From Candidatus Eiseniibacteriota bacterium (GTDB taxonomy: Bacteria > Eisenbacteria > RBG-16-71-46 > CAZEPH01), in NCBI GenBank assembly GCA_044229145.1, contig JBGATO010000009.1:17312-81311 (forward strand): a stretch of 64,000 nucleotides of DNA. The letters are read 5' to 3'. Position 1 is the first letter of the stretch, and every line of letters starts with the position of its first letter. This document shows, piece after piece, positions 16,605 through 38,512 of the stretch. Below the pieces are notes generated by a model, which saw only the letters and a program-made list of their open reading frames with translations, was not told the origin of the DNA and ran no database searches. Position numbers and translations under genes: made by a program.

Positions 16605-16979
16605 GTGGCGCAGGCAATTCTCATCGTCGATGACGAGCGCCTCCTGGTTCGCACGCTCTCGGCGGCTCTTCGAGAGGCCGGGTATCGTACCGTCACGGCA
16701 TCGTCCGCGGAACAGGCCGAGAAATATCTCGAGCCGGACGCGGCGATCGCGGTCGCGGTGCTGGACAATCGCCTTCCCGGGCGCTCAGGGATCGAGATGC
16801 TGCGGGAAGCGCGTGCGCGAGGTCTGGAGTGGCGGGTCGTCCTGATGACCGCCTTCGAGAGCGCGGACGCACAACGAGAGGCCACGGAACTCGGGGTGGA
16901 TCGCTACGTGCACAAGCCGTTCGATCTGCCGGACATGGTGTCGACCATCGCCGCTCTGTACGGAGCACGCGAGGTCTGA
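16605..16979 (+). CDS. Single-domain response regulator (CheY-like receiver)
   Basis: GAGGAGG RBS, ILIVDDE, VLD-NRLPG, MTA, KPF. Confidence 0.92.
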   Translation: MAQAILIVDDERLLVRTLSAALREAGYRTVTASSAEQAEKYLEPDAAIAVAVLDNRLPGRSGIEMLREARARGLEWRVVLMTAFESADAQREATELGVDRYVHKPFDLPDMVSTIAALYGAREV

Positions 16980-17018: not shown

Positions 17019-17162
17019 ATGGCAGCTGCGAAGAAGGCGGCGAAGAAGGTGGCCAAGAAGGCTCCGGCCAAGAAGGCCGTGAAGAAGGCCGCGAAGAAGG
17101 CGACGAAGAAGGTCGCCAAGAAGGCGACGAAGAAGGTCGCGAAGAAGGCCGCGAAGAAGTAA
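17019..17162 (+). CDS. 47-aa histone H1-like Lys/Ala-rich protein (not in the ORF track)
   Basis: [59 protein letters not shown], 22 Lys, no acidic residue, followed by a terminator. Confidence 0.85.
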   Translation: MAAAKKAAKKVAKKAPAKKAVKKAAKKATKKVAKKATKKVAKKAAKK

Positions 17163-28638: not shown

Positions 28639-30654
<2,016 letters not shown>

Positions 30655-30694
30655 CGGTCCGGCGGCCTCCACCTTTCGGAGGATACGCCGTGTG

Positions 30695-30723
30695 TTGACG
30701 GCCGCCCGGCAGGCTCCTACTCT
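30695..30723 (+). promoter_or_regulatory. Putative sigma70 promoter of the ATPase-sucCD operon
   Basis: TTGACG-N17-TACTCT, about 310 nt upstream of the first ATG. Confidence 0.55.
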
Positions 30724-31031
30724 GAGGTTGCGTGCGACGTCAGTCGCGTCGCACCTCCGCCGAGCGAAGGATCCGTACGCGAGTCATGCGATCCGTTCCC
30801 GTCCATCGCAAGTGGCGTCTCGGGCAAAACGTCTACGCGTTCCCGTGACGTGAACCGCCGGCCCGCTTCCACGCGGGCGCCGGTGCGGTGGCGTGTCCCT
30901 ACCCGCCGCATCGCCCACCATGCGTTCCTCCCTCCATCATGATTCGCCGCATCGATCGCGCACGACCGTGCGCGGCTCCCCGAGGGAGCGGACGCCGACC
31001 AGGCGACGTACCTTTCGTGAGGAGCGAACCC

Positions 31032-32420
31032 ATGAAGCGCACGCGTGTCGTGATCCAAGGGGCCGGTGGCCGCGACTTCCACAACTTCAACGTCCGGTAC
31101 CGCGATCGCGAAGAGTTCGAGGTGGTGGCCTTCACCGCCGCCCAGATTCCCGACATCGACGACCGGACCTATCCGGCCGTGCTCGCCGGCTCTCTCTATA
31201 AGAAGGGCATCCCGATCCGGCCGGAGGCGGACCTCGCCCGGCTGATCGTCGGCGAAGGCATCGACCAAGTCGTGTTCTCGTACTCGGACGTCCCGCACAC
31301 CACGGTCATGCACCACGCGTCGATGGTGAACGCGCTCGGCGCCGACTTCGTGCTGATGGGCACCCGCGAGACGATGCTGCGCAGCAAGAAGCCGGTGGTG
31401 GCGATCTGTGCCGTGCGCACCGGTTCCGGCAAGAGCCAGACGACGCGCCGGGTGTGCGAGCTGCTCAAGGCCCGCGGCCTCAAAGTCGCGGCGATCCGTC
31501 ACCCGATGCCCTACGGCGACCTCTCGAAGCAGATCGTCCAGCGCTTCGCCACCTACGCCGACCTCGACAAGCACCACTGCACGATCGAGGAGCGCGAGGA
31601 GTACGAGCCGCACATCGACACCGGCACGATCGTCTACGCCGGCGTCGACTACGGGAAGATCCTCGCCGCCGCCGAGGCGGAAGCCGACGTCATCGTGTGG
31701 GACGGCGGCAACAACGACACGCCGTTCTACTGGCCGGACCTCCACATCGTGGTGGCCGACCCGCACCGCGCCGGTCACGAAGTCACCTATCATCCGGGCG
31801 AGACGAACATCCGCATGGCCGACGTCGTGGTGATCAACAAGGAGACCACGACCACCTACGCGAACATCGAGGCAGTGCGCCAATCGGTCTTCTCGCTGAA
31901 CCCGCGGGCGCGAATCGTTGATGCAGCCAGCCCCATCTTCGTGGACAATGGCGACGCGCTGCGCCACAAGCGCGTGCTGGTGGTCGAAGACGGACCGACG
32001 GTGACGCACGGCGAGATGGCGTACGGCGCCGGCTGGGTCGCCGCGCAGAAGTACGGCGCGGCCGAGATGATCGACCCGCGGCCGTTCGCGGTGGGCTCGA
32101 TCGCCGCCGCGTACAAGAAGTACACGCACCTCGAGCGCGTCCTGCCGGCGCTCGGCTACGGCGACACGCAGGTCAAGGAGCTGGAGAAGACGATCAACCG
32201 CTCCGACGCCGACGTCGTCGTGGTGGCGACGCCGATCGACATCCGGCGCGTCGCCAAGCTGACCAAGCCGGCGGTGCGCGTGCGCTACGAGCTCGCCGAG
32301 ATCGGCGCGCCGACGCTGAACGACATGCTCGCCGAGATCTTCGACGAGGAGGCGACACCCTCCGCGAACGGCTCGGCGAAGAAGGCCACGAAGACCACGT
32401 CCAAGAGGAGCCGTCGATGA
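31032..32420 (+). CDS. COG2403-type P-loop protein (often annotated GTPase or cyclic 2,3-DPG synthase-like; probable arginine synthetase ArcE family)
   Basis: GAGGAG RBS, GAGGRDFHNFN, AFTAAQIP, AVRTGSGKSQT, RHPMPYG, TIEEREEYEPH, WDGGNND, EDGPT. Family recognised from memory. Confidence 0.75.
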   Translation: MKRTRVVIQGAGGRDFHNFNVRYRDREEFEVVAFTAAQIPDIDDRTYPAVLAGSLYKKGIPIRPEADLARLIVGEGIDQVVFSYSDVPHTTVMHHASMVNALGADFVLMGTRETMLRSKKPVVAICAVRTGSGKSQTTRRVCELLKARGLKVAAIRHPMPYGDLSKQIVQRFATYADLDKHHCTIEEREEYEPHIDTGTIVYAGVDYGKILAAAEAEADVIVWDGGNNDTPFYWPDLHIVVADPHRAGHEVTYHPGETNIRMADVVVINKETTTTYANIEAVRQSVFSLNPRARIVDAASPIFVDNGDALRHKRVLVVEDGPTVTHGEMAYGAGWVAAQKYGAAEMIDPRPFAVGSIAAAYKKYTHLERVLPALGYGDTQVKELEKTINRSDADVVVVATPIDIRRVAKLTKPAVRVRYELAEIGAPTLNDMLAEIFDEEATPSANGSAKKATKTTSKRSRR

Positions 32421-33580
32421 ATCTGTACGAGTTCCAAGCGCGCGAGCTGCTGCGGCAGGGGGGGATCCCGGTGCCGCGCGGCGAGGTCGCGCGTACCGCC
32501 GCGGAGGCGCGCGCCATCGCCGAGCGCACGCCCGGGCTCCTGGTCATCAAGGCGCAGGTGCACGCCGGCGGCCGCGGCAAGGCCGGCGGCGTGAAGCTGG
32601 CGCGCACGCCGGACGAGGCGCACACGCACGCGGCGAACATCCTGCAGCTCACCATCAAGGGACTGCCGGTACGCCAGGTGCTGGTCTCGAGCGCCGTCGA
32701 CATCGCGCACGAGTACTATGTCTCGATCCTCATCGACCGCGCGGCGAAGGCGCCGATGCTGATGGCGAGCTCCGCCGGCGGCATGGACATCGAGGAAGTC
32801 GCGGCGACGGCGCCGGAGAAGATCGTCAAGGTCGGTCTCTCCGCGGATCGCCCGATGACGCAGGCGGAGGCCGACGATGTCGCGGCGCGTCTCGGATTCA
32901 CCGGACACGCGGCGCGGCAAGCCGCCGACATCTTCCGCAAACTCGAGACGGTGTTCTGGCAGAGCGACGCGTCGCTCGTCGAAGTGAATCCGCTCGTCGT
33001 GTCGCCCGATCAGGCGGTGTGGGCGGTGGACGCAAAGATCTCGCTCGACGACAACGCGCTCTTCCGGCACAGTGATCTCGAATCGTTGCGCGACGAGTCG
33101 GCGGAGGATCCGCGTGAAGTTCAGGCGCGGCATGCCGATCTTTCTTTCGTCGGACTGCAAGGTGCGATAGGCTGTTGCGTGAATGGTGCAGGACTCGCGA
33201 TGGCCACGATGGATCTCGTGAAGTACTTCGGCGGCGAACCGGCGAACTTTCTCGACATCGGCGGTTCGAGTAATCCGACGAAGGTCGTCAACGCGATGAA
33301 GATCCTCACCAGCGATCCCGATGTGCGCGCGGTGCTGATCAACATCTTCGGTGGCATCACGCGCTGCGACGATGTGGCGCGCGGAATCCTGACGGCGCTC
33401 GACGAACTGACGATCACGCTGCCGATCGTGATCCGCCTGACCGGGACGCGCGAAGCGGAGGCCAAGGAACTGCTCGAGAAGGAAGGCCGCGGACGCCTCA
33501 TGTGGGCGTCGACGATGGACGAAGCCGTGCAGAAGGTCATCAAGGCTGCCGGCGGGACGGTCAAGGGGGTGCGCTCGTGA
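32417..33580 (+). CDS. sucC: Succinate--CoA ligase subunit beta
   Basis: [58 protein letters not shown]. Confidence 0.97.
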
Positions 33581-35151
33581 GCATCCTGATCGACCGTTCC
33601 ACCCGCGTCCTCGTCCAGGGCATCACCGGCCGCGACGGTTCGTTCCACGCCCGCTCCATGAAGGCGTACGGCACCCAGGTGGTCGGGGGAGTGACACCCG
33701 GCAAGGGTGGCCAGTTCGTCGACGACATGCCGGTGTTCAATAGTGTCGCCGAAGGGCGCGCCGCCACCGGCGCCAACGCCACCTGCATTTTCGTCCCCGC
33801 GCCGTTCGCCGCGAAGGCGATCCTCGAAGCGGCGGACGCCGGCATCGAGTTCATCGTCGCCATCACCGAGGGCGTGCCCGTCCTCGACATGTCGAAGGTG
33901 TGGAAGGCGCTCCAGGACAAGCCGAAGACACGGCTGCTCGGCGCCAACTGTCCCGGCCTCATCACGCCGGGCCAGTCCAAGATCGGCATCATGCCGGGCC
34001 ACATCACGACGCCCGGACCGATCGGCCTCGTCTCGCGCTCCGGCACGCTCACCTATGAAGTGGTATGGGCGCTCACCGAAGCCGGCCTCGGCCAGACGAC
34101 CTGCGTCGGCATCGGCGGCGACCCGATCAACGGCACCAACTTCCTCGACGTGCTGCGCATGTTCGAGGCGGATCCGGCCACCAAGGCCGTGGTGATGATC
34201 GGCGAGATCGGCGGCAATGACGAAGAAGTCGCCGCCGAGTTCATCCGCACACAAATGACCAAGCCCGTGGTCGGATTCATCGCCGGCCAGACCGCCCCGC
34301 CTGGCCGCCGCATGGGCCACGCCGGCGCGATCGTCACCGGCAACTCGGGCACCGCGGAATCGAAGATCGAGGCGTTCCGCCGCGCCGGCGTACCGGTGGC
34401 GCGCATCACCTCGGAGATTCCGGGACTCATTCGGCAGGTCATGGCGAAGCGCGGCGCAGCGAAGCCCGCGCCGAAGAAGGCCACGCCTGCCAGCAAGACG
34501 TTGGAGGACGGCGCGAAGCGGCGCGCGAAGGCATCGTCGGTGAAGACGAAGCCCACCCCCGCCGCCAAGGCCGCGTCTGCGAAGACGAAGGCGACCGCGA
34601 ACAAGGCGAAGACAGCACCGTCGGGGAAGACGGCGCCCAAGGCTGCATCGTCGGTGAAGACGACGCAGAAGTCTGCCGTGTCCGCGAAGCGCGCATCCTC
34701 CACGAGACCGGCTGCGCACGGAAAGGCGCAGCCCGGTCGCCCCGCCGGCTCGGCGGCCGTGAAGACGGCCAAGGCGTCCGGTGGGTCACGCGTCACGTCC
34801 GAACGGTCGGGCGGGACGCGTCGCGCGTCGAGCTCCCAGGCAGGAACGCGCACGGAGACCACCGCACCCAAGACGCAGAAAGCGTCTCGGACTACCGTGG
34901 GAGGAAGAATGGCAAAGACTGCTGCTCCGAAGAAGGCTGCCAAGAAGGCGGCGAAGAAGTCGACCGCCAAGAAGGCGGCGAAGAAGGCCACCAAGAAGGC
35001 CACGAAGAAGGTCGCGAAGAAGGCCACCAAGAAGACGGCCAAGAAGGCGACGAAGAAGGCCGTGAAGAAGGTCGCGAAGAAGGCTCCGGCCAAGAAGGCG
35101 GCGAAGAAGCGCACCGCGAAGAAGGCCGCGAAGAAGGCCGCCAAGAAGTAA
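33577..35151 (+). CDS. sucD: Succinate--CoA ligase subunit alpha with a ~236-aa Lys/Ala-rich C-terminal extension
   Basis: [39 protein letters not shown] (phospho-His). No stop after the normal end near 34440. Confidence 0.93.
34909..35151 (+). CDS. Nested in-frame 80-aa histone H1-like protein at the end of sucD
   Basis: GGGAGGAAGA-ATG internal start; [13 protein letters not shown]...[10 protein letters not shown], 37 Lys and no acidic residue. Confidence 0.65.
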
Positions 35152-35254
35152 CTCGCGGACCACTCGCCCGTCGCCGGCCGCGCCACACGCCCTGGGAGCA
35201 GGACGCGCGCCGGGGGCGGGCGAGCTCCGTATTCATCGCATGAAGGAGGGAGTA

Positions 35255-35686
35255 GTGCAGACGCTGTTCATGATCAAGCCGGATGGGGTGCAGCGTAACC
35301 TCACCGGCCGCATCCTTGCCCGGATCGAAGAGGCCGGTTTCACCATCCGCGGAGTCAGCCTGCAGCAGATGTCCCAGGCCGACGCGGAGGAGTTCTACGC
35401 CGTTCACAAGGAGCGGCCCTTCTTTCCCGACCTCGTGTCCTACATGACGTCCGGGCCGATCGTCGTCTGCGTGCTCGAGCACGACAACGCCGTGCAGCAC
35501 CTCCGCGACACCATCGGTGCGACCGACCCGGCGGAAGCCGCGCCGGGCACCATCCGCAAGGAGTTCGGTCTGTCGAAGCAGATGAACTCGTGCCACGGCT
35601 CGGACTCGCCGGAGAACGGCCAGATCGAGATCGCCTACTGGGTGAAGCGTGGCATCAAGCTGACGCCGGAGAAGGTGTCGGCGTAG
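35255..35686 (+). CDS. ndk: Nucleoside diphosphate kinase
   Basis: [47 protein letters not shown] follows AAGGAGG (alternative ATG at 35240). Confidence 0.96.
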
Positions 35687-35876
35687 AGCCGTGCCGCAGC
35701 GCAGTGTGCGAGGGCAGTCCGCTTCGGCGGGCTGCCCTCGTCGCATGCGTGGTGCGCCTCCGGCAGCGGACCGCGTACCGCCGGGGCGCCACGGACAGCG
35801 GCAGAGCCGTCGCCCACACTGGCCCGTGGCCACGGGACCCGCACGGGGCGGCGTCCCGGGCCGGGAGGATGCCAGC

Positions 35877-36344
35877 ATGTCGACGGTACCCGCGCCCATC
35901 GCGCGGTTCCTGGAGGGCAAACGCATTGCCGTCGTCGGGCTGACGGCAGAGGCGCCCGATCCCGCGCGGGCGATCGCCGCGCGGCTCGCCGCGACCGGAC
36001 ATGAGGTGGTGCCGGTGTCGCGTGAGGTCGTAGAGTTCGAGGGGCACGCCTGCTACCCGGCGCTCGGGGCCGTCGCAGGCCCGCTCGACGGCGCCTTCGT
36101 GGCGCCCGGGCCTGCCGGATCGCTGGCGCTGGCGGCCGAGTGCGTCGCGGCCGGCGTGCCGCGCATCTGGTTTCACTGGACGATCGGGGAAGGACACGTG
36201 CCGGAGGAGACGCGGGCCTATTGCGCGGAGCACGGCGTCGAGTGCATCGACGGCGGCTGCCCGCTGATGTTCTGCCCGCCGGTGGATCCGTTCCACCGCT
36301 GCTTGTGCTGGGTGGGGCAAAGGACCGGCCACGTTCCGCGGTGA
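35877..36344 (+). CDS. CoA-binding domain protein (YccU-like)
   Basis: GGGAGG RBS, KRIAVVG, GHEVVPV, CYPAL, IWFH, GGCPLMF. Confidence 0.8.
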   Translation: MSTVPAPIARFLEGKRIAVVGLTAEAPDPARAIAARLAATGHEVVPVSREVVEFEGHACYPALGAVAGPLDGAFVAPGPAGSLALAAECVAAGVPRIWFHWTIGEGHVPEETRAYCAEHGVECIDGGCPLMFCPPVDPFHRCLCWVGQRTGHVPR

Positions 36345-36452
36345 CACGGTCCGGACGACGGTGGTGTGGCACCGTCCGCCAGACGAGTCCAAGGTCCAGG
36401 CGGGGAAGGGGTTAGCCGCTGGACCAGGGGGCCGCCTGTCGCCCCTTCCCGG

Positions 36453-36481
36453 TTGAAACTTCCCGACGTGTCTGGTATGGT
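36453..36481 (+). promoter_or_regulatory. Putative sigma70 promoter of the yceD-rpmF-plsX-fab cluster
   Basis: TTGAAA-N17-TATGGT with extended -10 TG. Confidence 0.6.
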
Positions 36482-36560
36482 GCCCGCTTCGGTTGGGACC
36501 CCCTGTGGCTTCGCGGCCGTGTACGCCGCCCTGCGGCAGGTGAGATCTCCGGAGGCATCC

Positions 36561-37100
36561 GTGCGCATCGACGTCACCCATCTCGTCCACGGGCTCAATA
36601 CGTTGAGCGTGGACGAGGCACCCGCCACACTTCACCTTCCGGAACCTCGGAAGGAGGCCGCGGGTGACACGGAGGCTCACGCAGATGCGGCCCTCGGGGC
36701 GACGTTCCCGGGGCCGGTGCACGCCGCGTTGCGCATCACGCGCAACGAGGACGAATTCCTGCTCGACGCGGATCTCGGTTCGCCGGTCGAGTTGGAGTGC
36801 GCGCGATGCCTCACCTGGTACGCCAGCACCGTGGAGACGAGCTTTCGAGGCTTCGTCCGCCGCGGGGAAGGGCCGGCGGCCCATCGCAACTTCGAAGACC
36901 AGATGGACGAAGGCGGCGTGATCTATCACACCGGCCGCTATCTGGACATCGGCGAAGCGGTGCGCGAAGCCTTGCTCTTGGCGGTGCCGATGCGACCACT
37001 CTGCCGCGAGGACTGTCGGGGTCTCTGCGCGGGATGCGGGGCGGATCTCAACCGGGATACGTGTGCGTGCGCGGGTGCGCCGGACACGCGAGCGTCCTGA
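36561..37100 (+). CDS. yceD: DUF177 / YceD family protein
   Basis: GGAGG RBS, ECARCL, LAVPMRPLCREDCRGLCAGCGADLN; upstream of rpmF. Confidence 0.9.
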   Translation: MRIDVTHLVHGLNTLSVDEAPATLHLPEPRKEAAGDTEAHADAALGATFPGPVHAALRITRNEDEFLLDADLGSPVELECARCLTWYASTVETSFRGFVRRGEGPAAHRNFEDQMDEGGVIYHTGRYLDIGEAVREALLLAVPMRPLCREDCRGLCAGCGADLNRDTCACAGAPDTRAS

Positions 37101-37176
37101 GGGAATCGGGACGCTCTTGACCACACGCTCGGCCGCGTGCATCAGGCCGGGACTCGTTGAAGGAGAAGAACGCCTC

Positions 37177-37365
37177 ATGGCTGTTCCGAAGAGACGACAC
37201 TCGTCGACGCGTCGCGACAAGCGCCGCCACACCAACTCGCAGTTGTTCGCGCCGCTCCTCGGCCGCTGCTCTCACTGCGGCCAGCCCGCGCTCCCGCACC
37301 GTGTCTGCAAGGAATGCGGATACTACAAGGGTGTCGCGGTGCTCAAGAAGGACCTGGACGACTAA
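37177..37365 (+). CDS. rpmF: 50S ribosomal protein L32
   Basis: MAVPKRRHS..RRDKRR, CSHCG, PHRVCKECGYYKG. Confidence 0.97.
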   Translation: MAVPKRRHSSTRRDKRRHTNSQLFAPLLGRCSHCGQPALPHRVCKECGYYKGVAVLKKDLDD

Positions 37366-37471
37366 ACAGGGTGAACGCTCCCTCGCGTGAGCGACGCGCC
37401 ATCGAGCGCACCGGCACGATGCCGGTGTCGCGCCGCGTGCTCCGCGGGGCCCGGGCGGCCCTGACACTCCC

Positions 37472-38512
37472 GTGACGGACTCCACTTCTCTCCCCCGCAT
37501 CGCGCTCGACGCGATGGGCGGCGACCACGCACCTGGCGTGGTCGTCGAAGGCGCCCTCGCGGCCCTCACCGAGGCGCCCGGCGAGTTCACCGTGACGCTG
37601 GTCGGCGATCGCGCCGCCATCGAGGCCGAGTTGGCGCGCCTCGGCACCGGCGAGGTGCCCGGCCTGTCGATCCTCCACGCGGAGGAATCGGTGGACATGG
37701 CCGAGAAGGCCGCCGCGTCCGCGCGCAAGAAGACGCACTCGAGCATCGCCGTCGCCTTGAAGGCGGTGAAGGACGGCGAGGCCGACGCGATGATCAGCGC
37801 CGGCAACACCGGCGCCGTCGCGTCCACGGCGATGTTGACGCTCGGGCGCATCGCGGGGCTCAAGCGCCCCGCCATCGCCGCGTTCATTCCTACCAACGCG
37901 GGCGGCTGCATCCTGCTCGACTGCGGCGCCACCGCGGACTGCAAGCCGGAACACTTGCTGCAGTTCGCCGTGATGGGCTCGGTGTATTGCCGCGCGCTGC
38001 TCGAGCGCGACCAGCCGCGCGTCGCGCTGCTCAACATCGGCGAAGAGCCCGGCAAGGGCAACGAATTGGCGATCGCCACGCACCAACTGCTCGCGGCATC
38101 CGGAATGCCGTTCGTGGGCAATGTCGAAGGACGCGACGTGCTGAGCGGGGGAGCGGACGTCATCGTCACCGACGGCTTCACGGGGAACATCCTCTTGAAG
38201 TTCGCGGAGAGCGTCATCGGCTGGATCACCGGATTGGTGCGCGAGTCGATGAGCGGAACGTCCGGCGCTCAGCCGGGCGGTGCGGCCGAGGCCTTCGGGC
38301 CGGTGTTGGCGAATCTGCGCAAGCGGATCGACTACGCCGAATACGGCGGCGCCCCCCTGTTGGGCGTGGACGGTGTGTGCTTCATCGCCCACGGGTCCTC
38401 CTCGGCCCGCGCGGTCAAGAACGCAGTGCGGTCGTCCGCCCGCCTCGTGAGGGACGGTCTGGCGACGCGCATTCGTGACGAGTTGGCTGCCATGGAAGGG
38501 GATAGTCAATGA
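37472..38512 (+). CDS. plsX: Phosphate acyltransferase
   Basis: IALDAMGGDHAP, SAGNTGA, RPAIA, LLNIGEEPGKG, VTDGFTGN, YGGAPLLGV, HGSS. Confidence 0.96.
   Translation: MTDSTSLPRIALDAMGGDHAPGVVVEGALAALTEAPGEFTVTLVGDRAAIEAELARLGTGEVPGLSILHAEESVDMAEKAAASARKKTHSSIAVALKAVKDGEADAMISAGNTGAVASTAMLTLGRIAGLKRPAIAAFIPTNAGGCILLDCGATADCKPEHLLQFAVMGSVYCRALLERDQPRVALLNIGEEPGKGNELAIATHQLLAASGMPFVGNVEGRDVLSGGADVIVTDGFTGNILLKFAESVIGWITGLVRESMSGTSGAQPGGAAEAFGPVLANLRKRIDYAEYGGAPLLGVDGVCFIAHGSSSARAVKNAVRSSARLVRDGLATRIRDELAAMEGDSQ

Follow-up and report, generated by a model that had tools for sequence, protein, structure and literature searches.

Why does the alpha subunit of succinyl-CoA synthetase, a protein that usually comprises about 290 residues and ends just past its last helix, run to 524 residues at this locus? 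In the 64,000-nt stretch of DNA analysed here (the window), the sucD frame is open from a GTG at 33577, which shares a 4-nt GTGA overlap with the TGA stop of sucC, to a TAA at 35149-35151 (Table 1). The earlier note had described a SucD core ending near 34440 within a much longer frame, and this description holds, as the core extends to approximately nt 34449 and is followed by ~233 codons (NF004230, Pfam). The SucD equivalog profile (NF004230/TIGR01019) matches with 441.3 bits against a cut-off of 336, aligning residues 2-291 with profile positions 2-290 of 291, and Pfam locates CoA_binding (PF02629) at residues 7-99 and Ligase_CoA (PF00549) at residues 152-271. The phosphohistidine loop M246-G247-H248-A249-G250-A251 is invariant across 30 aligned sequences, the adjacent beta-subunit gene sucC is present with its stop overlapping the sucD start, and AlphaFold predicts a confident fold over most of residues 1-294, the loops at 125-142 and 248-252 being of low confidence. 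Among the matches listed are 20 solved succinate-CoA ligase alpha chains of 286-321 residues, which align up to query residues 281-290. The excess length of the 524-residue protein is itself the anomaly and hence no argument against its membership in the SucD family. Searched with this SucD, the 89%-complete source assembly (164 contigs) yielded no other SucD-type alpha subunit. The SucD core is intact and complete, and the fusion is genuine.

Table 1. Features of the sucC-sucD-ndk locus and of the standalone H1-like gene, in positions of the window
Feature	Position	Strand	Basis
sucC, ADP-forming succinate-CoA ligase beta subunit, 387 aa	32417..33580	+	NCBIfam NF001913, 497 bits (cut-off 370); ORF list
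Whole sucD ORF, 524 aa then TAA stop	33577..35151	+	ORF list; same frame open in sister species G001
SucD catalytic core, aa 1-291, GHAGA phosphohistidine motif (H248)	33577..34449	+	NF004230, Pfam, AlphaFold
Linker part A, 73 codons, K/A/S/T-rich	34453..34671	+	GC3 0.89; repeat family; dN/dS 0.95 vs G001
Linker part B, 79 codons, S/T/G/R-rich, weak codon periodicity	34672..34908	+	GC1,2,3 = 0.60, 0.80, 0.76; dN/dS 1.15
Internal Shine-Dalgarno GGAGGA (34900-34905), AGA, ATG (34909-34911)	34900..34911	+	Read from sequence; conserved in G001
H1-like module, 80 aa of (xAKK)n	34909..35148	+	Tandem Repeats Finder; dN/dS 0.20; GC3 0.925
GC-rich hairpin in the sucD stop-ndk spacer	35152..35232	+	Minimum free energy -56.3 kcal/mol, z -2.27
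ndk, nucleoside-diphosphate kinase, GTG start; upstream ATG 35240 also possible	35255..35686	+	NF001908, 184 bits (cut-off 155)
Standalone H1-like gene, 47 aa, GGAGG upstream	17019..17162	+	Repeat type as in the sucD tail module

The earlier note had proposed comparing SucD lengths in relatives and inspecting 34430-34910 for a lost stop. The sister species G001, from an independent assembly, encodes the same sucD fusion, a protein of 536 residues with a 245-residue tail that is 84% identical to the query over residues 1-483 and has no stop in the region corresponding to 34440-34500. All seven indels between the two tails are multiples of 3 (9, 9 and 3 nt in the linker; 3, 3, 3 and 45 nt in the module). 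Assembled contigs from four studies likewise leave the frame open and match the window without differences across 34299-35010: a DNA contig of run X1, which may be the source sample, spans that entire interval, RNA-library contigs from two other studies cover 34542-34998 and 34606-34988, and a DNA contig from a fourth study covers 34780-34959. The RNA libraries may contain DNA and their contigs stop short of the core-linker junction, which is covered only by the X1 contig and the G001 homologue. That the sucD stop disappeared, or that an unrelated lysine-rich gene was appended, through a sequencing error, a misassembly or a chimeric contig is extremely improbable, since, although the source assembly is fragmented and incomplete and short-read contigs break in the repeat array at ~34990-35070, a different species has the same architecture, the contigs of four studies agree, and the gene order sucC-sucD-ndk is the conserved one; the sucD fusion is not an assembly error.

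The tail of ~233 residues carries a net charge of ~+69, the 232 residues past residue 292 containing 73 lysines and arginines versus four aspartates and glutamates. In the AlphaFold model almost the whole stretch of residues 297-524 has a pLDDT below 50, and past residue 294 the model assigns no secondary structure. With its tandem short repeats, strong positive charge and predicted disorder, the tail shows the sequence features of the bacterial lysine-rich low-complexity DNA-binding tails (KPAA in AlgP and PhaF, PAKKA in Hlp and Ku), which are grouped by function and not by homology. It is built of three parts, a K/A/S/T-rich repeat stretch, an S/T/G/R-rich spacer and a terminal 80-residue (xAKK)n module. 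Its likeness to eukaryotic linker histone H1 is confined to the composition of the H1 C-terminal tail; the winged-helix globular domain of histone H1 is absent in Pfam scans of the whole protein and of the tail. Pfam searches with the tail (232 residues) and the module (80 residues) returned no family even at E values up to 10, and the standalone H1-like gene matched no usable family, results to be read with the HMMER bias filters in mind, which penalise low-complexity sequence such as this tail. Open frames with at least 11 lysines in 40 residues number only nine in the genome, among them an inositol-1-phosphate synthase and a DUF1028 protein, which suggests that such tails are targeted rather than a genome-wide habit.

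Comparison with G001 separates the three regions of the protein, with dN/dS values of 0.11 in the core, ~1.06 in the linker and 0.20 in the module. The value for the linker indicates that its amino acid sequence is unconstrained, and the differences fall at the three codon positions in numbers of 31, 28 and 28 over 146 codons, with no third-position excess. As judged from the aligned sequences, only the open frame, the in-frame indels and the composition of the linker are kept, and the module is under purifying selection. A tolerated read-through would show the same linker pattern (dN/dS ~1, no third-position excess). The earlier note had regarded the linker as evolved coding sequence, partly on account of a 19-nt duplication. 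The duplicate was found exactly at 34531 and 34645 and nowhere else within the window, and it forms part of a set of five direct repeats, degenerate and 34 nt long, at 34458-34671, whose spacings of 66, 39, 45 and 30 nt are all multiples of 3. The broader claim stands in part: the first half of the linker has a GC3 of 0.89, and all three linker indels relative to G001 are multiples of 3, but the dN/dS of 1.06 does not bear it out, nor does the second half, where GC3 (0.76) is below GC2 (0.80) and not gene-like. Linker part B may once have been an intergenic spacer or a 5' leader. The linker is T-poor, and 7.4% of 20000 mononucleotide shuffles of it are stop-free, so that an open frame alone is weak evidence; in neutral simulations the linker stayed open in 27% of trials under the observed substitution spectrum and in 7.6% under a uniform one. 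The stronger evidence for a real frame comes from the relatives and the independent contigs.

The designation of the tail end as an H1-like repeat in the earlier note was borne out, the last 80 residues being an (xAKK)n array with a 12-nt period, present in 17.7 copies at 34928-35148 (Tandem Repeats Finder). The module shares 75% identity (E 4.4e-8) with the standalone gene at 17019..17162, while BLASTP of the two proteins returned no alignment owing to low-complexity masking and their DNA alignment reflects mostly the common AAGAAGGC period. Paralogy of the module and the standalone gene, for which the repeat type, the MA- start and the 75% match speak, is accordingly a suggestion and not proven. 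The first residues of the module, MAKTAAPKK, are similar to those with which two other H1-like proteins of the genome begin (MAAAKK and MASAKK), and the same repeat type is also found at the N-terminus of a SWIB-domain protein.

The module is preceded by an internal Shine-Dalgarno start, GGAGGA-N3-ATG, which is kept in G001 as GGAGGAACAATG. It includes codons that are rare in this genome (GGA, 8.1% of Gly codons; AGA, 1.1% of Arg codons); the pattern GGAGG-N3-9-ATG has 905 occurrences in 8.45 Mb, both strands counted. Conservation of the internal Shine-Dalgarno and ATG was compared in G001 only, the long-tailed relatives P0004-P0006 being known as proteins. A separately translated nested product from ATG 34909 is possible on the strength of this motif; the module retains its own ribosome-binding site and ATG, so that a free 8-kDa H1-like protein may be made as well. 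A scan of 34300-35300 with a sigma-70-type consensus, the consensus of this phylum lying outside the scan, gave no promoter-like sites, and a terminator scan of the same interval gave a single terminator-like site, which lies on the minus strand, numbers below those from shuffled sequence. The spacer between the sucD stop and ndk (35152-35254) is 87% identical to that of G001 over 102 aligned nt, and an Rfam scan of 30000-38000, hairpin at 35152..35232 included, returned no matches.

Basic SucD tails of 24-245 residues are present in 44 of 86 class genomes sampled. They are fixed in all four families in which they occur (f1, the family of this locus, 2/2; f9, 15/15; f10, 25/25; f17, 2/2) and absent in the 42 genomes of twelve other families of the class. 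The tails of f9, f10 and f17 are basic and lack any internal Met. On a quick SucD tree with SH-aLRT support, five proteins with long tails (133-258 residues; core identity to the query 72-91%) belong to one well-supported clade (SH-aLRT 99), of which three further members have core identities of 72-79%. One of these relatives, P0006, scores 34.8 bits on the Hc2 family PF07382, below the 40-bit cut-off, and its genome is not among the 206 species genomes of the class, a tally that includes one unpublished genome (G083) on which nothing stated here depends. The family has one other genus, represented by G002, in which sucD is cut at residue 104 by the contig end. Outside the class, two Zixibacteria genomes and one from GN15 encode SucD tails (143, 73 and 86 residues), and the tail-bearing clades are separate on the SucD tree. 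A search of metagenome and genome contigs returned mostly SucD of other phyla through the common word EIGGNDEE, and no DNA of the long-tailed relatives P0004-P0006. One further candidate for a long-tailed relative, L042, was rejected; it appeared to match query residues 1-463 and has a stop directly after the core.

With moderate confidence we read the locus of this uncultured Gemmatimonadota bacterium as a real fusion, in which an intact SucD carries a disordered polycation of ~233 residues, made up of a spacer and a selected module, that would bind polyanions. The spacer of ~150 residues drifts in sequence, while its frame stays open, its length changes stay in frame and its K/A/S/T/R composition is kept; the selected part is the 80-residue (xAKK)n H1-like module at the C-terminal end. 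Most likely the module goes back to an independent small H1-like gene, or to a copy of such a gene, placed between sucD and ndk.

The pattern of selection invites a different explanation, in which the locus serves to make a separate small H1-like protein that starts at the internal Shine-Dalgarno and ATG (34909), its message perhaps being a transcript that arises in the linker. On this view sucD has lost its stop and the read-through product, possibly trimmed by a protease, is a tolerated by-product. Purifying selection on the module and none on the linker, the lack of gene-like GC3 in linker part B, the rare-codon start conserved in G001, and the standalone gene of the same repeat type within the window all agree with such a nested gene. 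So does the low dS of the linker (0.22, versus 0.47-0.50 in the flanks), which fits constraint at the nucleotide level, as in a leader or promoter. Among the contigs listed, those from RNA libraries that are identical to the window begin within the linker (34542 and 34606) and continue into the module; however, contigs give no transcript starts and their depth cannot rank genes, and the 34300-35300 scan with its sigma-70-type consensus contributes no promoter. Moreover, the frame is still open and its indels are in frame in G001, and with no stop codon after the sucD core ribosomes must enter the linker, so that the fusion is made whatever else is produced. The tails of 133-258 residues in three more members of the clade, at 72-79% core identity, are too long-lived for unselected read-through, and the tails of f9, f10 and f17 are fixed without any internal Met. 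We consider it unlikely that the nested gene is the functional unit and the fusion a by-product.

If the fusion, with a predicted size of 52 kDa, is the functional product, each alpha2-beta2 enzyme would bear two long cationic arms, which would bind polyanions without sequence specificity, the chromosome being the most probable partner and RNA or polyphosphate the alternatives. The succinyl-CoA- and NTP-handling enzyme would thereby be held at a polyanionic surface. Which partner is bound, and to what physiological end, is our inference; the tail probably attaches the enzyme to DNA or another polyanion. Tethering to the nucleoid is plausible by likeness to AlgP, PhaF, Hlp and Ku. According to PMC9239181, the lysine-rich tails of AlgP and PhaF serve in DNA binding and in granule tethering (polyphosphate and PHA), and AlgP of P. 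aeruginosa localises to polyphosphate granules, its lysine-rich C-terminal domain being needed for their even spacing. These Pseudomonas proteins resemble the SucD fusion in having disordered, histone-H1-like Lys/Ala-rich C-terminal repeats on an unrelated folded N-terminal part. They differ in that the repeat here is xAKK without regular proline, whereas theirs is KPAA, and in that the folded part here is a TCA-cycle enzyme and not a regulator or phasin; the sucD tail has no sequence-family match to them, and its function is predicted. The PAKKA tails of mycobacterial Hlp (HupB) and Ku interact with DNA, as reported in PMC3553676, and are likewise low-complexity lysine-rich tails on conserved proteins in some lineages only, but their carriers already bind DNA, whereas SucD has no known nucleic-acid role. 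Bacterial H1-like proteins are described in PMC2848022 as having lysine-rich tandem repeats whose copy number varies by in-frame indels; chlamydial Hc2 (PF07382) shares both features with the sucD tail, but is a free protein and not an enzyme tail, and the sucD tail has no Pfam match.

The AlgP precedent also lends itself to a fusion whose tail, instead of binding the chromosome, recruits the enzyme to polyphosphate granules, ribosomes or RNA, drives charge-based condensates, or acts only as a solubility or entropic-bristle tag. The role of the AlgP domain in granule spacing (PMC9239181) favours a partner of this kind, as do the occurrence of the window sequence in bioreactor and sludge metagenomes and the scarcity of comparably lysine-rich frames in the genome, by which the tails appear targeted. 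For polyphosphate itself the enzymology is unfavourable, as PPK1 was not found and PPK2 gave a single 20.6-bit match, below the cut-off, in this 89%-complete genome. The repeat type of the module recurs in the standalone H1-like gene and at the N-terminus of the SWIB-domain protein, a context more typical of chromatin than of granules. We regard a partner or role of this kind as decidedly unlikely.

The polyanion-binding fusion could be extended into a model of regulation. In mitochondria, according to PMC3917248, a defect of succinyl-CoA synthetase (SCS) leads to mtDNA depletion, SUCLA2 has been raised as a possible nucleoid component, and an SCS-NDPK complex is cited. Here sucD adjoins ndk and carries a tail of DNA-binding type, which is an analogy only: the solved mitochondrial alpha subunits, of 305-321 residues, carry no such tail, and in bacteria the adjacency of ndk is independent of the tail. 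The earlier note had singled out ndk as lying directly downstream, but as a specific sign of tail function this has to be set aside, since 29 of 37 relatives, tailed and tailless alike, have ndk directly after sucD. The earlier idea that succinylation of the tail lysines couples metabolism to DNA compaction is speculation. As a sensor, ~70 lysines and arginines would lie beside the site that produces succinyl-CoA, and high succinyl-CoA would neutralise the arms, releasing the enzyme or loosening the DNA; as a source of two products, the locus alone would determine how much enzyme is tethered relative to the amount of free compaction protein. The joint model, with SucCD on the nucleoid through two +69 arms, local NTP supply together with Ndk, a self-succinylation sensor and a free H1-like protein, would be a bacterial counterpart of the mitochondrial link between SCS, NDPK and mtDNA maintenance, but seems to us very unlikely to hold in full.

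The literature searched, which left subscription journals mostly outside its scope, contained no paper that connects an H1-like or lysine-rich tail with succinyl-CoA synthetase; the SucD-tail fusion is conserved but previously unstudied. The Zixibacteria tails resemble that of f1 in being polycationic, disordered and attached to the same subunit, but the f1 tail is longer (232-245 residues), modular, with its drifting linker and selected module, and contains an internal Shine-Dalgarno and ATG. This internal start points to the capture of a separate gene.

A core TCA-cycle enzyme with a polycationic anchor, of the type by which proteins are tethered to DNA or to polyphosphate and PHA granules, stands against the usual picture of freely diffusing bacterial enzymes. 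Whole families of Gemmatimonadota carry the anchor as a fixed trait, and it reappears in Zixibacteria and GN15. That the same subunit has gained it repeatedly and kept it for long suggests that placing succinyl-CoA synthetase at a polyanionic surface brings a selected advantage. In the f1 form a small H1-like gene has apparently been captured with its ribosome-binding site retained, while the linker that joins it to the enzyme drifts neutrally yet stays open, making the f1 locus a clean case in which to study how disordered tails and nested genes arise.

The enzyme part of the SucD fusion is complete and ordinary, because the whole SucD equivalog model NF004230 is covered by residues 2-291 (441 bits, cut-off 336 bits), the Pfam domains CoA_binding and Ligase_CoA lie at 7-99 and 152-271, the phosphohistidine loop MGHAGA (residues 246-251) is invariant in an alignment of 30 sequences, and solved succinate-CoA ligase alpha chains (20 sequences of 286-321 aa among the matches listed) align to query residue 290 at most. 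The ~233 residues beyond are extra, as the earlier note had read from a core followed by ~236 codons of K/A/T/S-rich sequence. The final 232 contain 73 K+R and only four D+E. AlphaFold, using the 30-sequence alignment, predicts a fold that is largely confident over residues 1-294, the loops at 125-142 and 248-252 scoring low, and gives pLDDT below 50 across nearly all of 297-524, with no secondary structure past residue 294. The sucD start and the sucC TGA stop overlap within GTGA. With the window SucD as query, no second SucD-type alpha subunit was found in the window's own 89%-complete genome assembly (G000).

Features of the sucD locus and other lysine-rich proteins of the genome (window positions unless a G000 contig is named; dN/dS and dS are Nei-Gojobori estimates, window versus sister species G001)
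Feature	Position	Strand	Description	dN/dS	dS
Standalone H1-like gene	17019..17162	+	47 aa, GGAGG upstream, xAKK repeat type as in sucD module		
sucC	32417..33580	+	NF001913, 497 bits; directly upstream of sucD		
sucD	33577 (GTG)..35149-35151 (TAA)	+	single open frame, 524 aa		
SucD core				0.11	0.50
Linker part A	34453-34671	+	73 codons, K/A/S/T-rich, GC3 0.89 (gene-like)	0.95	0.24
Linker part B	34672-34908	+	79 codons, S/T/G/R-rich, GC3 0.76 < GC2 0.80	1.15	0.21
Whole linker	34453-34908			1.06	0.22
H1-like module	34909-35148	+	80 aa, near-perfect (xAKK)n, 12-nt period, 17.7 copies, GC3 0.925	0.20	0.47
GC-rich hairpin	35152-35232	+	sucD stop-ndk interval; minimum free energy -56.3 kcal/mol, z -2.27		
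ndk	directly downstream of sucD	+	NF001908		
Myo-inositol-1-phosphate synthase	C60:39635-41110	-	K-rich C-terminal tail		
DUF1028 protein	C77:13203-14642	-	K-rich C-terminal tail		
SWIB/MDM2-domain protein	C158:11865-12467	+	H1-like N-terminus		
Large putative primary sigma factor (sigma-70-like)	C125:83323-85668	-	K/A/P-rich N-terminus; read from sequence		

An open frame is by itself weak proof of a fusion here, because the stretch is T-poor and 68-70% G+C; 7.4% of 20000 linker shuffles lacked a stop codon, and one further linker frame is likewise open. The fusion is nevertheless genuine, since the same SucD-tail architecture occurs in G001, an independent assembly of the single congeneric species in the collection (core identity 91%, tail 245 aa, common junction motif TVGG(R/T)MAKTAAPKK), since all tail indels in the nucleotide alignment of the two have lengths divisible by three (linker: 9, 9 and 3 nt; repeat array: 3, 3, 3 and 45 nt), and since Logan contigs match the window with zero differences. 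These contigs derive from a DNA run that is possibly the source sample (34299-35010), from RNA libraries of two other studies (34542-34998 and 34606-34988), which are evidence of presence and not of transcription, and from DNA sequenced in a fourth study (34780-34959), the core-linker junction (34430-34540) being covered by the possible source run and the G001 homologue only.

The tail is not uniform in composition. Part A of the linker is made up of five degenerate direct repeats of 34 nt at spacings of 66, 39, 45 and 30 nt, every one in frame; the 19-nt duplication reported at 34531 and 34645 is exact, has no other copy in the window and belongs to this family. Part B has codon-position G+C that is not gene-like. 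Differences from G001 at codon positions 1/2/3 number 15/16/86 in the 291 codons of the core, 31/28/28 in the 146 of the linker and 9/7/20 in the 80 of the module. Together with dN/dS, this pattern indicates selection on the module as protein and not on the amino-acid sequence of the linker, in which open frame, in-frame indels and composition are what is kept. The proposal that the linker is evolved coding sequence needs correction: the G+C of part A and the indels fit it, its dN/dS and part B do not. Neutral simulation of the window's linker (20000 trials) left it stop-free in 27% under the observed substitution spectrum and 7.6% under a uniform one, so that the pairwise comparison alone gives frame maintenance only modest support. 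Despite a dN/dS near 1, the linker has a lower dS than core and module, which could reflect nucleotide-level constraint, e.g. a leader for a nested start or T avoidance.

A candidate for such a nested start lies at the module, which opens with ATG at 34909 directly after GTG GGA GGA AGA, i.e. GGAGGA plus three bases. In G000, GGA and AGA account for 8.1% of the glycine and 1.1% of the arginine codons, respectively, and GGAGG-N3-9-ATG has only 905 occurrences in 8.45 Mb, both strands counted. The site and start are kept in G001 as GGAGGAACAATG. The junction reads TMA in G001 and in the database proteins P0004 and P0006 (three of the five clade proteins) and RMA in the window, while P0005 is without the internal Met. 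The module N-terminus, MAKTAAPKK, resembles the starts of two further H1-like proteins of G000, namely the standalone 47-aa protein, which is 75% identical to tail residues 443-497 (E 4.4e-8), and the SWIB-domain protein (MASAKKASAKK). The standalone gene comes after a response-regulator-like ORF (16605..16979). Lysine-rich tails are uncommon in G000: only nine stop-to-stop frames have at least 11 K in any 40 residues, among them these two, SucD, the myo-inositol-1-phosphate synthase, the DUF1028 protein and the putative sigma factor. A second product, a free 8-kDa H1-like protein, is plausible from the internal Shine-Dalgarno sequence and ATG. The module itself seems to have been inserted or captured in the clade of family f1 specifically, to which the window and G001 belong.

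The earlier note placed ndk correctly, but the adjacency says nothing tail-specific because it recurs in 29 of 37 relatives with or without a tail; no K-rich small ORF lies between the two genes in these relatives. The hairpin after sucD, which lacks a U-run and any Rfam match, may be an attenuator or processing site; the spacer (35152-35254) is 87% identical to that of G001, more conserved than the upstream coding linker. Directly upstream of sucC lies a P-loop protein of 463-510 aa (30888-32420, +; probable start near 31029), which likewise ends in a short basic stretch and gave cobW at 19.4 bits (below cut-off), a weak PPK2-like stretch (20.6 bits) and nothing in NCBIfam. The G000 lineage is found in bioreactor and sludge samples.

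Further long forms in the protein database (P0004, 546 aa; P0005, 442 aa; P0006, 476 aa; cores 72-79% identical to the query) group with the window and G001 in one clade of a quick maximum-likelihood core tree (SH-aLRT 99); the tails in this clade span 133-258 aa. Among 86 genomes of the class with a readable SucD C-terminus (37 plus a non-random set of 49 chosen by family), 44 carry basic tails (24-245 aa, D+E 0-5), all in four families: f1 (2/2), f9 (15/15), f10 (25/25) and f17 (2/2). The remaining 42, from twelve families, lack one; in 41 of them SucD stops at most 7 residues from the core, and in G022 it has a non-basic extension of 15 residues. In f9 the tail starts with a conserved (R/K)-hydrophobic-(K/R)-(V/L)-V motif of LK(L/V)V type (e.g. 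PKLRVV, RLKLVS; loci L011, L012, L017, L029, L033, L036, L200-L209) and in f10 with an RxRxxNG type (e.g. RARKKNGAAK; L004, L005, L016, L022, L027, L230-L249), each followed by variable polybasic sequence; both may be short linear motifs. The tail-bearing groups form separate, well-supported clades amid tail-less ones, with five state changes most parsimonious and at least two forced by well-supported branches; the root and deep forks lack resolution, leaving gains versus losses uncounted. Outside the class, K-rich tails occur in 3 of 80 species genomes sharing a core word (143 and 73 aa in two Zixibacteria, 86 aa in one GN15 genome); a further match probably belongs to the window's class, because its tail sequence is the one also present in an f17 genome. 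Basic SucD tails also occur at 4 of 80 metagenome loci. This depth of retention across relatives makes a stronger case for selection than the pairwise comparison.

The comparisons show an intact SucD joined in one frame to a predicted disordered polycation whose terminal module is under selection, a trait long retained in several lineages. An alpha2-beta2 enzyme would thereby have two arms, each with ~+69 charge and able to attach to polyanions irrespective of sequence. The likeliest partner, by analogy, is DNA, because the module repeat type is that of the free H1-like proteins and the SWIB-domain protein N-terminus; PMC9239181 and PMC3553676 describe DNA binding by comparable tails of AlgP and PhaF and of mycobacterial Hlp and Ku, respectively. 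Polyphosphate is a live alternative, given that granules of it are positioned by the AlgP tail (also PMC9239181); in the 89%-complete G000, however, searches found no PPK1 (PF02503) and, for PPK2 (PF03976), only a match below the cut-off. The main rival holds that selection acts on the free H1-like protein from the internal start and that the fusion is merely tolerated, against which stand the open frames long retained across the f1 clade and the tails without internal start fixed in other families. The succinylation switch of the earlier note is speculation. Mitochondrial succinyl-CoA synthetase (SCS), whose defects deplete mtDNA, is a parallel by analogy only; PMC3917248 suggests that SUCLA2 may be part of the nucleoid and cites an SCS-NDPK complex.

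Lysine-rich low-complexity tails on bacterial proteins are of an already known kind; our literature search, with most subscription journals outside its coverage, did not find a TCA enzyme carrying such a tail fixed in whole families. The SucD tail is real and conserved and lends itself to testing, and such tails are not confined to the window. What the f1 form adds is an origin in modules, a ribosome-binding site still in place and a linker that drifts neutrally yet stays open.
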